Sequence record: OR525704.1
From: Escherichia phage vB-Eco-KMB35
Length of the DNA stretch: 43,891 nucleotides
Strand: one strand, 5' to 3'
The notes under the pieces: generated by a model
Told to the model about the DNA's origin: nothing
Databases searched by the model: none
The model's input: the letters and a program-made list of their open reading frames with translations, nothing else
In this document: one piece after another, positions 4,298 to 41,343 of the stretch
Layout: every line of letters starts with the position of its first letter
How positions within the stretch are numbered: the stretch's first letter is position 1
Made by a program: the position numbers and the translations under genes

Positions 4298-4326
4298 AAA
4301 AGGCCCCATTATGGGGCCTTAGTTTT
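4298..4326. terminator. Bidirectional hairpin ggcccc-attat-ggggcc between convergent genes
   Basis: GC stem flanked by A-run upstream and ttagtttt downstream. Confidence 0.6.
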
Positions 4327-4529
4327 CAACGGAATCTTGTGTTTAAATCCTGCTCATGGACAACCCTCAGAACAGTGTCATAATCCCCGTATCTTCCAGG
4401 TTCAAATATATCTAATGCCTTGTAAGCAGACATTGCGTCAGGGAAAACCTGCAGAACCTTTTTAACCCGGCACAAGTCACCGTCGAACTCTTCATCGAAC
4501 TCTTGAACTACTTCGCAAATTGCATACAT
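4326..4529 (-). CDS. Hypothetical small acidic protein (67 aa), reverse-oriented moron-like gene
   Basis: ATG at 4529 preceded by GGAGGTG RBS and the 32-bp promoter element; ends at bidirectional terminator. Confidence 0.6.
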   Translation of the reverse strand: MYAICEVVQEFDEEFDGDLCRVKKVLQVFPDAMSAYKALDIFEPGRYGDYDTVLRVVHEQDLNTRFR

Positions 4530-4553: not shown

Positions 4554-4585
4554 TGAATAGTACCCTATTATATTGGGGTGTGCAA
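4554..4585 (-). promoter_or_regulatory. Promoter element family A (TTGCAC-N17-TACTAT), copy 1
   Basis: Minus-strand sense ttgcacaccccaatataatagggtactattca; 32 nt identical to 13678..13709; directly upstream of gene 4326..4529. Confidence 0.6.
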
Positions 4586-4651
4586 ACTATTTATTTACGT
4601 ATTCCAGTTATTCCTCCGAATTGTAAATGTTGGAATAAACTATTCGAATAG

Positions 4652-4680
4652 TTGACTTTTCACTAAAAATATGATAAGCT
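4652..4680 (+). promoter_or_regulatory. Putative sigma70-like promoter TTGACT-N17-TAAGCT
   Basis: Hexamers at 4652-4657 and 4675-4680 with a 17-nt AT-rich spacer. Confidence 0.3.
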
Positions 4681-13652: not shown

Positions 13653-13677
13653 AATTATTTCCTCAGTAAGTTACATG

Positions 13678-13709
13678 TGAATAGTACCCTATTATATTGG
13701 GGTGTGCAA
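13678..13709 (-). promoter_or_regulatory. Promoter element family A, copy 2 (identical to 4554..4585)
   Basis: 32-nt exact repeat; TTGCAC-N17-TACTAT in minus-strand sense, upstream of 13652 start. Confidence 0.6.
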
Positions 13710-26488: not shown

Positions 26489-26676
26489 TTCGCCACCAGC
26501 ACCAGCTCTTTACGCCCGAACGCCGTAACGTTACCCGTTACATCTTCGATAACCAGTTTACCGTTCGACTCGACGAACACCGTATCAACGGCAACAGGTT
26601 GACGTGTCTTAACGTTGAAAATCATGTCACCCGGTACGATGTCACGTGCTGGTTTGCGGTCGTATTCGTGTTTCAT
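26485..26676 (-). CDS. Hypothetical protein (63 aa)
   Basis: RBS AAGGAA; overlaps methyltransferase start. Confidence 0.45.
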   Translation of the reverse strand: MKHEYDRKPARDIVPGDMIFNVKTRQPVAVDTVFVESNGKLVIEDVTGNVTAFGRKELVLVAK

Positions 26677-26706: not shown

Positions 26707-26994
26707 TTAACTATAATAGCCCGCTATTAGGTCGTCAACCTGTTTAAACGAACCAACGACAAAAACATTTGCACCACGTTTACGCATCCGCTCGTGCTCT
26801 CGTAACTGGTGCGGGTCCGGCTTCGTGTTTTCGTCTTTCTTAACCTCGACGAACCAGATGATGCCACCAGGGAGAATTACCAGCAGGTCGGGGGCGCCGG
26901 AGCGCCCCTCATAAGACAGCTTACGAACGAGGCCACCAATGGCCTCGAATCGCTCTTTTGCGTATTTCTGCACGCGCCCCTCAGGCGTACTCAT
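26707..26994 (-). CDS. VRR-NUC domain nuclease
   Basis: 95 aa; PDLLVI...VEVKK PD-(D/E)XK-type motif. Confidence 0.7.
   Translation of the reverse strand: MSTPEGRVQKYAKERFEAIGGLVRKLSYEGRSGAPDLLVILPGGIIWFVEVKKDENTKPDPHQLREHERMRKRGANVFVVGSFKQVDDLIAGYYS
26709..26738 (-). promoter_or_regulatory. Promoter element family B (minus-strand TTGACG-N17-TATAGT) overlapping the 3' end of the VRR-NUC gene
   Basis: 30-nt element aactataatagc-NNN-ctatt-NNNN-cgtcaa shared with 30898 and 33447. Confidence 0.45.
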
Positions 26995-30212: not shown

Positions 30213-30839
30213 TTAGCGGCGACGACGTTCACGGCGCGGTGCTTCATCTTCTTCGTCATCTTCCAGGTCATTGACGCTCGCGGCGACTTTAGAACCGCCG
30301 AACGCTTTGCCTTCGCCAACGTATTTAATCGCCAGCAGGTTAACGCCGAGGACTTTGTATTTCTGGCTGAACCAGATTTCAACGCTTACGTTAGCTAAGC
30401 ATCCGCTGTAAACCTGTTCACCTTCAATCTGTTCGCCGTCTACGTTGAAGTCCTGCTCTACCTGAGTCTCACCTTTTTTAGAGGTTACAATCAGCGGCTG
30501 TTTCTGTGCCTTCGCTTTGAAGTAGAAGCCTTCCGGGAAGTCTTCAAACGGATTGTCGCGCTCGGCAATGTCTTTAATCGCGCATTTATCCATGTGCTTA
30601 CCTTCACCGTAGTTGGACTTCATCCATTTCTCGGCAGCGGCTGCGCCTAACGCTTCTTCAACTACAGCGTAAACGGTGTCGTAGAGTGCATCGATTTGAG
30701 CATGGTCAGACGGCAGGATGATAGTCGCGCTGTACTGGCCTTTAGTGATTGAGCCATCATCGTTTTCACGGTCTTTTTCACGTTCAAATACGTTAACCCA
30801 AGCAGTGTTTACTTTACGCAGATTCAGTTTAATACCCAT
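30213..30839 (-). CDS. Single-strand DNA-binding-like protein (DUF2815-like, from memory)
   Basis: 208 aa; acidic C-terminal tail DLEDDEEDE; position next to polymerase and nuclease genes. Confidence 0.5.
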   Translation of the reverse strand: MGIKLNLRKVNTAWVNVFEREKDRENDDGSITKGQYSATIILPSDHAQIDALYDTVYAVVEEALGAAAAEKWMKSNYGEGKHMDKCAIKDIAERDNPFEDFPEGFYFKAKAQKQPLIVTSKKGETQVEQDFNVDGEQIEGEQVYSGCLANVSVEIWFSQKYKVLGVNLLAIKYVGEGKAFGGSKVAASVNDLEDDEEDEAPRRERRRR

Positions 30840-30897
30840 CGTGATTTCTCGCTTTTAAGTTTCGTTTACTCCGGGAAGCTGCCCGGTCAGTGATTAG

Positions 30898-30927
30898 AAC
30901 TATAATAGCTAACTATTCAGGTGTCAA
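30898..30927 (-). promoter_or_regulatory. Promoter element family B (minus-strand TTGACA-N17-TATAGT)
   Basis: Near-consensus hexamers, 17-nt spacer, about 60 nt upstream of gene start 30839. Confidence 0.6.
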
Positions 30928-31116
30928 ATAAAATTTCGCAATACGGACTATGTTCTCGAAATCATTCATATCAACGGGTTCGAATTCATCCTCCACATGG
31001 TTGTATCGCACCATCGTGCCGTTCAGGAACGTAAACGATTCCGAATGGATATAACCGCCCCAGCGCCATATCATCACAAAATCTTTATCTGTGGGCATTT
31101 CATTTACTTGAATCAT
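30913..31116 (-). CDS. Hypothetical protein (67 aa)
   Basis: ORF with start overlapping upstream stop. Confidence 0.4.
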   Translation of the reverse strand: MIQVNEMPTDKDFVMIWRWGGYIHSESFTFLNGTMVRYNHVEDEFEPVDMNDFENIVRIAKFYLTPE

Positions 31117-33191: not shown

Positions 33192-33419
33192 TTACTCACC
33201 GTCGCCTTCAGTAAGGCTATCGTCTATTAGTTCAAATTTACCGTTTGAGTGTTGAATAGCTTCTTGCCCGCAATGGTCACAGACAACAAGTTTATCGAAC
33301 CCATCAAACTCATCCCCTACTACGCAAGAAAGTACAAATTTATGTTTTGTGCACACTTCTTGCGGAGCGCCGAAAATTGCTCGAAAACCTTTAGCTATGG
33401 CCCCAGTGATTGTGTTCAT
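33192..33419 (-). CDS. Small zinc-ribbon protein (75 aa)
   Basis: CxxC-like Cys pairs (C..C...C..C); RBS GAGAGGGG; first gene downstream of promoter 33447..33476. Confidence 0.5.
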   Translation of the reverse strand: MNTITGAIAKGFRAIFGAPQEVCTKHKFVLSCVVGDEFDGFDKLVVCDHCGQEAIQHSNGKFELIDDSLTEGDGE

Positions 33420-33446
33420 ATCTGCCCCTCTCGTTTGGTATGGGCT

Positions 33447-33476
33447 AACTATAATAGCGAACTATTCACATGTCAA
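33447..33476 (-). promoter_or_regulatory. Promoter element family B (minus-strand TTGACA-N17-TATAGT), early leftward promoter
   Basis: Consensus hexamers with 17-nt spacer; palindromic core TAATAG-N4-CTATTC. Confidence 0.6.
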
Positions 33477-33540
33477 TGGGCTTTTCTAAAATAATTAATA
33501 TGGTACTATTCACATATCAACTGACTAAGGAGTAATTGAC

Positions 33541-33756
33541 ATGCAACCATCTGAACTAGGTATCCGTGTAGAACAACGCCGTAAAGAACTCGGCATCTCC
33601 CAGCGCCGTTTGGCGGCCCTGACCGGCGTTTCCCAGGGCGCGATTAACCAACTGGCACTTGGAGTAACTCAGGACGTCCGCCCGGCAACGCTGTTCAAAC
33701 TGGCGGAAGTTCTGGAAGTAGACGCCAAGTGGCTGGCGTTAGGTGAAGGGGCTTAA
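33541..33756 (+). CDS. Cro/XRE-family helix-turn-helix transcriptional regulator
   Basis: 71 aa; LGISQRRLAALTGVSQGAINQL HTH; divergent from replication operon; AAGGAG RBS. Confidence 0.7.
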   Translation: MQPSELGIRVEQRRKELGISQRRLAALTGVSQGAINQLALGVTQDVRPATLFKLAEVLEVDAKWLALGEGA

Positions 33757-36202: not shown

Positions 36203-36493
36203 TTACCGTTTAGCCAACCCTTCCAGCAAATTTTTATACTCTTCAAAATATTCCTCGACCAAATCATCGCCGAAATAGAAGTCGATATACTCGAGATTAT
36301 CTCTTACGTTAAGCGATGCCGACATGGTGCTTAGTTGGCGTAAGCTAATTAGCTTCATTTCTGTTTCTACGCAGAAAGGCCGGTAGGTATCAAGATGGCA
36401 AGAGATATTGAAGCATAAAGCGAACTCTCCGGCCACGGAGTGAACCATATACACTTCGTTTTCTGCTTTATTGTGGAAAATTACGCCTTTCAT
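36203..36493 (-). CDS. Hypothetical protein (96 aa)
   Basis: ORF in replication operon, overlaps upstream gene stop. Confidence 0.45.
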   Translation of the reverse strand: MKGVIFHNKAENEVYMVHSVAGEFALCFNISCHLDTYRPFCVETEMKLISLRQLSTMSASLNVRDNLEYIDFYFGDDLVEEYFEEYKNLLEGLAKR

Positions 36494-36672
36494 TTCACGT
36501 TCTCCTTAATCCATGCTTCGACTTTATTACGGTCAAATGTTCCCGGTAAACGGCGGCCCATAACCTTAATACAGCAGTCAGGGAATTTGCCGCTGCGCAA
36601 CCAGTTATTAATGGTCTGACGTGTCACCCCGATACGCTCGGCTACCTCATTCTGTGTCATGTAATGTTGCAT
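36490..36672 (-). CDS. AlpA/excisionase-like HTH DNA-binding protein
   Basis: 60 aa from ATG 36672 (RBS AGGGGA); MTQNEVAERIGVTRQTINNWLRSGKFP matches AlpA-type HTH pattern. Confidence 0.6.
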   Translation of the reverse strand: MQHYMTQNEVAERIGVTRQTINNWLRSGKFPDCCIKVMGRRLPGTFDRNKVEAWIKENVK

Positions 36673-36703
36673 TTTTATATCCCCTGTTTGTTTAGTGAAA
36701 CCG

Positions 36704-36732
36704 AGTATAGGATAGCGGGAATGTAAAAGCAA
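36704..36732 (-). promoter_or_regulatory. Minus-strand promoter TTGCTT-N17-TATACT for the leftward early operon
   Basis: Hexamers (read on minus strand) with 17-nt spacer about 30 nt upstream of AlpA-like gene. Confidence 0.45.
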
Positions 36733-36769
36733 CCAATCCCTGCAATATTTAATCTTTACAAAAAAGTTA

Positions 36770-36805: not shown

Positions 36806-37026
36806 GGGACTTGTATATATTACGGAGTTGACGAACCCTCCCCGAGGGATTCGTCAACCCCTCCCAGACAGCTGAGATGCTTGCCTTGTGGTTTAAGGAT
36901 AAGTGTATCTAAATCTCATTTAAAGAAGTAACCCGCTGAAATATCTACTGTTTCTTAATGTGCCGTAGATTCGCAACCGTAAAAATGTAACGATTATTGG
37001 GCAGGCTTAGGGCCTGCCCTTTAGTT
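36806..37026 (+). ncRNA. Candidate small non-coding RNA (promoter to terminator, no ORF)
   Basis: About 220 nt between promoter 36770..36799 and terminator 36999..37026; 13-bp imperfect hairpin 36828..36857; longest ORFs 10-11 codons. Confidence 0.35.
36999..37026 (+). terminator. Intrinsic terminator gggcaggc-ttagg-gcctgccc then tttagtt
   Basis: Perfect 8-bp GC stem with T-rich tail. Confidence 0.6.
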
Positions 37027-37091: not shown

Positions 37092-37123
37092 TTGCACACC
37101 CCAACATAATAGGATACTATTCA
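37092..37123 (+). promoter_or_regulatory. Promoter element family A (TTGCAC-N17-TACTAT), copy 3, rightward early promoter
   Basis: 30/32 identity to copies at 4554 and 13678 in opposite orientation; 30 nt upstream of ORF 37155. Confidence 0.6.
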
Positions 37124-37154
37124 CTTATCGAAACGAGACAGAGGAGTGAGGGTT

Positions 37155-37346
37155 ATGTTTAAGAAGGGTCAGTTGGTTATAACTAAACGCGGAGGGCAAT
37201 ATGTATTAGTGTTGCAGGACGAGAGCGAGTATGACGAGGATAATCTGGTTGACGTATGGGGTCTGGTAAGAAAGAAAACTGGGTTCGCCTCACGCGATAA
37301 TTTAGAACTCATCGGCAACAATTTTAAATTCAAAGGGGCGAAGTGA
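37155..37346 (+). CDS. Hypothetical small protein (63 aa)
   Basis: ATG with GAGGAG RBS. Confidence 0.5.
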   Translation: MFKKGQLVITKRGGQYVLVLQDESEYDEDNLVDVWGLVRKKTGFASRDNLELIGNNFKFKGAK

Positions 37347-38259: not shown

Positions 38260-38291
38260 TTGCACACTAATATAGAGTAGGCTACTATTCA
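38260..38291 (+). promoter_or_regulatory. Promoter element family A variant (TTGCAC-N17-TACTAT), copy 4
   Basis: Same hexamers and spacing; TACTATTCA core; 28 nt upstream of ORF 38320. Confidence 0.5.
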
Positions 38292-38319
38292 TTTACACAA
38301 ACGAGAGGAGAGACAGAAT

Positions 38320-41260: not shown

Positions 41261-41281
41261 TCTATTTTCTGCAATGACTAG

Positions 41282-41310
41282 TTGACTATTACCTACGACC
41301 CTATTATATT
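41282..41310 (+). promoter_or_regulatory. Promoter TTGACT-N17-TATATT
   Basis: Good -35 and -10 hexamers with 17-nt spacer directly after terminator. Confidence 0.5.
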
Positions 41311-41343
41311 TACTCCATCGACAACGAGAACGGAGTAGAGAAG

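Follow-up and report, generated by a model that had tools for sequence, protein, structure and literature searches.

The genome of Escherichia phage vB-Eco-KMB35 (sequence record OR525704.1) contains three closely similar 30-nucleotide elements, one of them at positions 33,447 to 33,476, in each of which a near-consensus sigma70 promoter is interlaced with a short inverted repeat. The subject of this article is that repeat, its distribution over the genome and the protein that may bind it. The stretch analysed, referred to here as the window, is 43,891 nucleotides long. It belongs to a Kagunavirus (subfamily Guernseyvirinae), a lytic siphophage of E. coli whose genome it spans completely or nearly so, and open reading frames (ORFs) cover ~93% of it. 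Phages Bas70, Bas72 and Bas74 of the BASEL collection are 92-98% identical to the region from 24 to 37 kb, over 90-98% of its length. As annotated in Bas72, this region is a block of minus-strand genes for helicase, methylase, Holliday-junction resolvase, DNA polymerase, single-stranded DNA (ssDNA)-binding protein, exonuclease and helicase-primase, interrupted by one plus-strand gene for a 'transcriptional regulator'. A scan of the whole window against Rfam gave zero matches.

The three elements, here termed family B, lie on the minus strand within this block (Table 1). Their coordinates and alignment are as a sequence-only reading of the window had given them, and its description of near-consensus sigma70 promoters facing the minus-strand replication genes is borne out by the hexamers and by the placement of ribosome-binding sites and ATG codons. 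A search for TTGAC(A/G)-N17-TATAGT that tolerates one mismatch returns exactly three sites; 100 dinucleotide shuffles gave an expectation of 0.23, and none of them reached three. The same sites hold the top three sigma70-like scores between 24 and 44 kb (11, 11 and 10 of 12 consensus positions), and a sigma70 consensus scan of 1-20 kb returned no site scoring as high. Start codons at 26676, 30839 and 33419 lie 20-60 nucleotides downstream of the -10 hexamers, each after a purine-rich, GAG-rich Shine-Dalgarno sequence; since a ribosome-binding site and an ATG follow each element within this distance, the family B sites appear to head three transcription units. The first, from 26709, would comprise a 63-amino-acid (aa) ORF, a cytosine methylase and a DNA helicase; the second, from 30898, the gene of an Enc34-type ssDNA-binding protein (starting at 30839), DNA polymerase and nucleases; and the third, from 33447, the ORFs from 33419 onwards, of 75, 166 and 90 aa, and an exonuclease. 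In two cases the element shares sequence with the end of the gene before it: the copy at 26709 covers the last codons of ORF 26707-26994, the VRR-NUC gene in which it had been placed before, and the copy at 30898 overlaps the end of ORF 30913-31116. Most likely, the family B elements are strong promoters for the host RNA polymerase (sigma70) that divide the replication and recombination genes of the minus strand among three transcription units.

Each family B element contains the 14-bp inverted repeat AATAG-N4-CTATT, whose half-site centres are 9 bp apart and which is itself contained in an 18-bp unit, TGAATAGT-N3-CTATTAT. Six exact copies of the repeat are present in the genome against 0.04 expected, and 13 copies against 1.1 expected when up to one mismatch is allowed. 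It is the commonest exact 5-N-5 palindrome of the genome, the maximum in Markov simulations being 2-3 copies, and the other exact palindromes of this form that reach three copies are solely GC-rich terminator stems. Of the 13 copies, 11 are located at promoters or in intergenic sequence, and the two intragenic ones equal the chance expectation. Enrichment over a shuffled genome, named as a check when the motif was first noticed, is hence established for both the palindrome and the promoter motif, each of which lies far above chance. The palindrome is common to at least five promoters besides family B, and to at least eight promoters genome-wide.

Table 1. Promoters, palindromes and candidate DNA-binding proteins in the window
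Feature	Positions	Strand	Details
Family B promoter 1 (PB-VRR)	26709..26738	-	-35 TTGACG 26733-26738; -10 TATAGT 26710-26715; palindrome 26715-26728
Family B promoter 2 (PB-ssb)	30898..30927	-	-35 TTGACA 30922-30927; -10 TATAGT 30899-30904; palindrome 30904-30917
Family B promoter 3 (PB-cro-divergent)	33447..33476	-	-35 TTGACA 33471-33476; 17-nucleotide spacer; -10 TATAGT 33448-33453
Palindrome of family B promoter 3	33453..33466	.	AATAG-CGAA-CTATT; outermost half-site base (33453) shared with the -10 TATAGT as its first T
Promoter of the cro-like gene	33481..33510	+	No good -35 (CTTTTC); extended -10 TGgTACTAT 33501-33509; palindrome AATATGGTACTATT 33497-33510
HTH_3 (XRE/Cro-type) protein, 71 aa, proposed operator-binding repressor	33541..33756	+	Assigned from Pfam and structural relatives
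Family A promoter	4556..4585	-	Palindrome 4556-4569; drives 67-aa ORF 4326-4529
Family A promoter	13680..13709	-	Palindrome 13680-13693; drives 108-aa ORF and DNA-repair exonuclease
Family A promoter	37092..37121	+	Palindrome AATAGGATACTATT 37108-37121; drives small plus-strand gene cluster from near 37160
Family A promoter	38260..38289	+	Palindrome AGTAGGCTACTATT; one mismatch here, AATAG in most relatives
Class C promoter (third register)	41277..41310	+	TTGACT-N17-TATATT; -35 at the centre of one-mismatch ACTAG-TTGA-CTATT
Weaker candidate	4647..4660	+	One-mismatch AATAG-TTGA-CTTTT with -35-like TTGACT; upstream of plus-strand lysis and head genes
HTH_17 (AlpA/excisionase-like) protein, 60 aa, alternative binder	36490..36672	-	Assigned from Pfam HTH_17

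The second set of promoters carrying the palindrome, family A, has the form TTGCAC-N17-TACTAT, with four exact matches against 0.14 expected (4557-4585 and 13681-13709 on the minus strand, 37092-37120 and 38260-38288 on the plus strand). The proposal that both families share one palindrome is confirmed by the copies found at the two promoter sets. As to its position in family A, judged with the invariant TTGCAC-N17-TACTAT taken as the promoter, the overlap with the -10 (TACTAT) that had been described holds and includes the downstream spacer, whereas the start site, also said to be covered, is not reached. The palindrome thus occurs in three registers, overlapping the spacer and the first -10 base in family B, the spacer and the -10 in family A, and the -35 at 41277. 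Counted from the -35, it starts after 4 nucleotides in family B and after 10 in family A, and at 41277 it spans the -35 itself. The 18-bp unit is carried by the promoter strand in family B and by the antisense strand in family A. The class C site at 41277 is conserved in Salmonella phage SE2 as AATAGTTGACTAGT, and the copy at 4647 is also present in Bas72 and in phage fBC-Eco01. A one-mismatch palindrome, TATAGTATGCTATT, is located at 2753-2766, directly behind a terminator hairpin (2733-2748). The start codon of a head-morphogenesis gene (ATG, 2759) falls within this palindrome, which is identical in Bas72 and may be a functional site or a coincidence.

Conservation has been followed in 36 Kagunavirus loci from IMG/VR together with Bas72 and fBC-Eco01, which provided 28-34 distinct variants per family B element. 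Over the three elements, five of the 30 half-site columns vary, each in one or two sequences (mean non-majority fraction 0.006), and the half-sites are as conserved as the hexamers (0.016 for the -35 and 0.013 for the -10). The most variable columns of the region are those of the N4 centre (10 of 12 varying, mean 0.121) and the four between palindrome and -35 (7 of 12, mean 0.118), compared with 35 of 75 in the flanks (mean 0.053). The difference between half-sites and centre has a Fisher p of 1e-4 among these variants, a value that is descriptive only, as related sequences share ancestry and their columns are not independent samples. The centre at 33447 exists in at least six versions (CGAA, TGAA, CTAA, CAAA, CTAG and CGAG), and an insertion or deletion of one nucleotide beside the -35, which makes the spacer 17 or 18 nucleotides long, keeps the palindrome in register with the -10. 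The same pattern, conserved half-sites around a variable centre, is seen at the family A copies at 37108 and 38276. The distal half-site AATAG of family B falls at about -25 to -21, a part of the promoter without base-specific sigma70 contacts. Because the half-sites are conserved, the registers are three and family A has the unit in the opposite orientation to family B, the palindrome appears separable from the promoters and behaves as a putative protein-binding module in its own right rather than as a promoter part. Conserved half-sites flanking a variable centre, next to a variable spacer, also fit the earlier suggestion of an operator for a dimeric helix-turn-helix (HTH) regulator.

The same alignments bear on an account that we regard as improbable, namely that the repeat has no dedicated binder and is either intrinsic to the promoters (mirror-image -10-like sequences of bidirectional promoters, or DNA shape) or a leftover of cassette duplication. 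Such an origin would agree with the overlap or abutment of CTATT and the -10 in every class (cTATTAT, TACTATt, ctatTATAGT), with the TATAAT-like hexamers in the flanks on both strands, and with the situation at 13680, where one palindrome belongs both to the family A promoter of the minus strand and to a B-like promoter of the plus strand (GTTACA-N17-TATATT). It does not account for a distal half-site as invariant as the hexamers amid varying neighbours, for a register that changes by class, for the inversion of the unit between families A and B, or for half-sites that outlast the divergence of the surrounding sequence across genera. Bidirectionality in particular finds no place in the family B elements, where a plus-strand promoter has been ruled out by the lack of a -35 on that strand, and the plus-strand promoter at 13670 is not conserved in Bas72 or fBC-Eco01. 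That sequence (13670-13698), which faces the tail-assembly genes, is a weak candidate promoter whose -35 is the part not conserved in these two relatives.

Beyond Kagunavirus, the repeat is retained in two further lineages of the subfamily. In Jerseyviruses, (T)AATAG-N4-CTATT(A) is present at family A promoters and at each orthologue of the three family B promoters. In SE2, reverse-complementing the cro-divergent 14-mer gives exactly that of the ssb promoter, centre included, and in most other Jerseyviruses the two are one base short of this relation. Serratia phage Tsm2, which belongs to a separate Guernseyvirinae lineage, keeps the palindrome at the orthologues of family B promoters 1 (with one mismatch) and 2 and of one early family A promoter. 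Orthologues of the 30898 promoter are present in SE2, VSiA, SE1 and Tsm2; the 33447 promoter is kept in 34 distinct Kagunavirus variants and has an altered form in Jerseyvirus and Cornellvirus. The Cornellviruses VSiA and SE1 are without AATAG-N4-CTATT, and their family-A-type promoters carry TATTA-N6-TAATA instead, a palindrome that corresponds to a symmetric A-to-T change in both half-sites. VSiA has three exact and three one-mismatch copies of it, all at promoters. The Cornellvirus repeat emerged from a census of palindromes, a de novo k-mer search of the Cornellvirus genomes having been dominated by coding repeats.

This distribution is relevant to the idea that the phages exploit a transcription factor or nucleoid protein of their enterobacterial hosts. 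Phages of E. coli, Salmonella and Serratia do carry the same half-sites, and many regulators are common to these hosts. Cornellviruses also infect Salmonella, yet carry a different repeat at the analogous promoters, and a phage-encoded HTH protein of matching geometry is encoded beside the sites. We know of no enterobacterial regulator with an AATAG-N4-CTATT consensus, and consider a host binder very unlikely.

The phage protein in question is the 71-aa product of the plus-strand gene at 33541..33756. It matches Pfam HTH_3 with 49.7 bits against a cut-off of 23, and its best relatives of known structure are 434 Cro (E = 8.5e-6) and the DNA-binding domain of the 434 repressor, aligned over the full length with E about 1e-5; identity to 434 Cro is about 39% over the whole length. 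A single-sequence AlphaFold model (pLDDT 81) matches HipB, controller C-proteins (C.BclI, C.AhdI and C.Esp1396I are among its best matches), 434 Cro, P22 c2 and SinR, all of which are dimeric binders of inverted repeats. Homologues occur in 536 phage records, among them all four Guernseyvirinae lineages examined (Kagunavirus, Jerseyvirus, Cornellvirus and Tsm2), and this Cro-like protein is the only HTH protein present in all four.

The cro-like gene has a copy of the palindrome at its own promoter, which is nearly invariant in 39 Kagunavirus loci. A 'further half-site' had been described at 33503..33512; the site exists, and is in fact part of the full one-mismatch palindrome AATATGGTACTATT, in which the mismatch is the T of the extended -10 TG. 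This promoter stands back-to-back with the 33447 promoter, with 4 bp between the -35 positions and 44 bp between the palindrome centres. In Jerseyvirus the palindrome copy at the regulator's own promoter is degenerate. The antisense strand of the cro-like promoter (33491-33520, minus strand) resembles family B (TTGATA-TG-TGAATAG..., scored in the scan as TTGATA-N18-AATTAT) and might be a weak leftward promoter in tandem with that at 33447. Just downstream of the cro-like gene of Cornellviruses (VSiA 34690, minus strand; 6426 in a second genome), a near-consensus promoter, TTGACT-N18-TATACT/TATAAT, points back at the gene and may give an antisense transcript. The helicase-primase gene of Cornellviruses is inverted relative to that of Kagunavirus.

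Two binders had been put forward from the sequence, the Cro/XRE protein and an AlpA-like protein (36490..36672). The former is favoured here for its HTH_3 domain, its kinship with 434 Cro, the copy at its own promoter and its presence in all lineages, and the latter is disfavoured. That the palindrome is an operator for the 60-aa HTH_17 protein, acting as repressor or activator, would suit its 80-100% identity between Kagunavirus and Jerseyvirus, both of which carry AATAG-N4-CTATT, compared with only about 48% for the Cro-like protein; its gene is also absent from Cornellvirus, whose promoter palindrome differs. A search for the HTH_17 protein in more distant clades returned only Kagunavirus and Jerseyvirus loci and did not separate the two candidates. 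Against this binder stands Tsm2, which keeps the palindrome and in which tblastn of the whole genome found zero HTH_17 homologues, and for this reason the HTH_17 protein is disfavoured. Furthermore, the promoter of the HTH_17 gene itself (TTGCTT-N17-TATACT, 36702-36735, minus strand) has no full palindrome. Small Xis and HTH_17 proteins have no dimerisation module and usually recognise direct repeats or single sites, not 14-bp inverted repeats, which also counts against such a binder. Altogether we think it quite unlikely that the HTH_17 protein is the one that binds. A near-perfect palindrome of ~40 bp (GGAGGGGTTGACGAATCCCTC / GAGGGTTCGTCAACTCC; 36824-36864) lies upstream of the HTH_17 promoter and is followed by no U-tract; it could be a site for another regulator.

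The name AlpA also evokes the lambda QBE and the Pseudomonas aeruginosa ABE, loading sites for Q and AlpA respectively, which resemble the present element in lying in the spacer between -35 and -10, with an 'AlpA-like' protein encoded nearby. The P. aeruginosa ABE is the non-palindromic GGGACG and is bound by one AlpA molecule, which contacts DNA through residues 128-142 and whose N-terminal segment forms a ring inside the exit channel for RNA. The element described here is symmetric, in contrast, and the phage protein is a bare 60-aa HTH_17 domain, absent from the palindrome-bearing Tsm2. An AlpA-type antitermination role of the HTH_17 protein at the spacer element has been ruled out by the asymmetry of the ABE and the absence of the N-terminal ring segment.

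Taken with the evidence above, the palindrome is probably an operator bound by a dimer of the 71-aa, 434-Cro-like HTH_3 protein, which would repress the early and replication promoters and, more weakly, its own gene. The promoter consensus, the enrichment, the placement of the sites, their conservation pattern and the protein family can be read from the sequence; site occupancy, the identity of the binder and a repressive effect, and with them the terms 'operator' and 'repressor', are inferred from position and family resemblance. In the mechanism we propose, host RNA polymerase would start unaided at the three family B promoters, as their near-consensus sequence suggests. The Cro-like protein would be made from its own extended -10 promoter and accumulate, and its dimer, on the palindromes, would occlude the spacer and the edge of the -10 and so block RNA polymerase. 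Transcription of the replication and early operons would be damped as the protein accumulates, and at higher concentration it would damp its own gene through the weaker copy.

The three registers, which include positions over the -35 of the late-facing plus-strand promoters at 41277 and 4647, also leave room for a positive or dual action, in which the Cro-like protein or another factor represses at the spacer and -10 and activates or times late promoters at the -35. Temporal control would otherwise go unexplained, as no RNA polymerase or sigma factor is annotated in Bas72 or fBC-Eco01. Nevertheless we consider it unlikely: family B, near-consensus and with an optimal 17-nucleotide spacer, should need no activator, and the copies that overlap a -35 are all mismatched, so that a match including TTGAC could partly be a by-product of the -35 hexamer. 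Sites near -18 or -33 overlap RNA polymerase contacts, which is usual for repressors and not for class I or II activators.

Several observations weigh against repression by the Cro-like protein and should be set beside it. The one-mismatch copies at the late-type promoters 41277 and 4647 are not explained by a simple model of early shut-off, and the region beside the cro-like gene of Tsm2 has no clear palindrome. In Cornellviruses the B-type promoters hold hybrid, imperfect repeats, and the count of TATTA-N6-TAATA (three exact) is only at the upper edge of the null. The shared ancestry of the aligned sequences tempers the column statistics. Recognition helices read SQGAINQ in Kagunavirus, SQSLITH in Jerseyvirus, SQGMLNH in Tsm2 and TQSAISH in Cornellvirus; those of Kagunavirus and Jerseyvirus differ at four of seven positions, yet the two genera share a half-site, and the Jerseyvirus and Cornellvirus helices are more alike despite different palindromes. 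At the first helix position the three AATAG lineages have Ser, and Cornellvirus, with its TATTA-N6-TAATA, has Thr. Co-variation of protein and putative operator is accordingly weak, a matter of one residue and one lineage change, because only this first residue (Ser/Thr) tracks the half-site difference. Lastly, a literature search found no binding, footprint or transcript data for this phage group.

The motif itself has been published. The genome paper of fBC-Eco01 lists seven 'phage promoters' predicted by PHIRE, with the consensus tgAATAGTa-ccTATTat-T, and credits them to a phage-encoded RNA polymerase (PMC9825357). In the corresponding GenBank record (OM272052), PHIRE 'phage promoter4' marks the copy within the nuclease gene, and another copy is marked before the HTH gene; this is the same sequence as that described here, in a close relative. 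The seven copies do not include the orthologues of 30898 and 33447, and sigma70 hexamers and palindrome are not told apart in that paper (PMC9825357). A PHIRE-based count of seven promoters is also given in the Golestan paper. PHIRE-based predictions are the only work on promoters, operators or transcriptomes of Kagunavirus, Jerseyvirus or other Guernseyvirinae phages that our literature search returned, and it found no mapped transcript 5′ ends (transcription start sites or transcriptomes) for Kagunavirus or Jerseyvirus. To promoters of a phage RNA polymerase we give next to no credence. What PHIRE picks up and labels 'phage promoter' is a repeated 20-mer (PMC9825357), and the motif is embedded in a canonical -35/-10 sigma70 architecture. 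No RNA polymerase is annotated among the 82 coding sequences of Bas72 or the 78 of fBC-Eco01, a statement about annotation only, no dedicated search having been made. Since the motif lies within sigma70 architecture and no such polymerase is annotated, the attribution in the fBC-Eco01 paper is wrong.

Among known systems, the closest parallel is the Cro and repressor pair of phage 434. Operators of 434 are 14 bp long, with conserved outer bases, a variable centre and the form ACAA-N6-TTGT. The present system resembles it in having a phage regulator of 71 aa with an HTH_3 domain and a 14-bp inverted repeat with five conserved outer bp and a variable centre; the half-site differs, being AATAG and not ACAA. 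As in lambdoid OR regions, the sites overlap core elements of back-to-back divergent promoters, and the regulator's promoter has a weaker copy. Unlike in 434 and the lambdoid phages, there is one site per promoter, not a tripartite OR or OL, and the sites are spread over at least eight promoters. Nor is a lambdoid immunity region what the relatives contain: neither an integrase nor CI is among the annotated genes of Bas72 and fBC-Eco01, and the gene divergent from the cro-like gene is a 75-aa ORF without a Pfam match, not of CI type. The phage group has been described as strictly virulent or lytic (PMC9825357).

The anti-CRISPR-associated Aca proteins and the C-proteins of restriction-modification systems, autorepressors of the XRE family, offer another comparison, being small HTH_3 dimers on inverted repeats over the -35 and -10 of strong promoters, where they damp or time expression. 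Each of them governs a single operon; in the 44-kb virulent phage described here, one motif is found at most promoters. Dispersed sites near many promoters, recognised by one phage DNA-binding protein (as proposed here), are known for the C1 operators of P1 and the 'stoperators' of mycobacteriophage L5 gp71. Those sites are asymmetric and serve the maintenance of lysogeny in temperate phages; the sites described here are symmetric, and the phage is lytic.

The surroundings of the promoters have features of their own. In the 5′ untranslated region (UTR) between the 30898 promoter and the ssDNA-binding protein gene, a minus-strand stem-loop (30871-30886, CCGGG-cagctt-CCCGG) is kept in SE2, VSiA and SE1, and Tsm2 has swapped arms (CCCGG-cggtgtta-CCGGG). 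The swap of the arms suggests that the structure is conserved at the RNA level; it might be a translational operator or stabilise the 5′ end. Homology among Kagunaviruses breaks directly upstream of the -35 of the 30898 promoter (from 30928 onward) and just downstream of the 5′ UTR of the 33447 promoter (33427); as the breaks fall at their edges, these promoter-operator cassettes appear to coincide with mosaic junctions. Behind the 33447 promoter, the 75-aa ORF (33192-33419) has about 87% DNA identity to T7-like Kayfunavirus phages, which points to a recent exchange between unrelated phage families. A recurrent 5′ UTR motif, AACGAGAGG or AACGAGACAGAGGAG, precedes many start codons (33425-33433 on the minus strand; about 37134-37150, 38297-38310 and 41318-41330); it is longer than a plain Shine-Dalgarno sequence and is also found in Cornellvirus and Tsm2.

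A Cro-type operator on sigma70 promoters, if that is what the palindrome represents, is an ordinary and well-known kind of phage control circuit, seen here in a further phage group. No new principle is revealed, and the general interest is modest. More tentatively, and as a speculation that we would not ourselves rate as probable, an orphan Cro without CI might serve as a genome-wide timer of the strictly virulent Guernseyvirinae: nearly all transcription would come from sigma70 promoters that share one operator in three registers (spacer, -10 and -35), early and replication genes would be shut off and balanced with late promoters, and the cassettes would double as junctions for module exchange.

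Kagunaviruses and Jerseyviruses are often isolated for use against E. coli and Salmonella in therapy and biocontrol, and are represented in the BASEL reference collection. Host-type promoters with a shared putative operator provide a testable map, in which the replication genes form three operons next to those of the early genes and to a cro-like gene with putative autoregulation, and name one small protein as the probable master regulator. For this much-used phage group the map would be of practical use in annotation, in phage engineering, where it may supply strong, portable and repressible promoters, and in explaining why mosaic boundaries fall at these sites.

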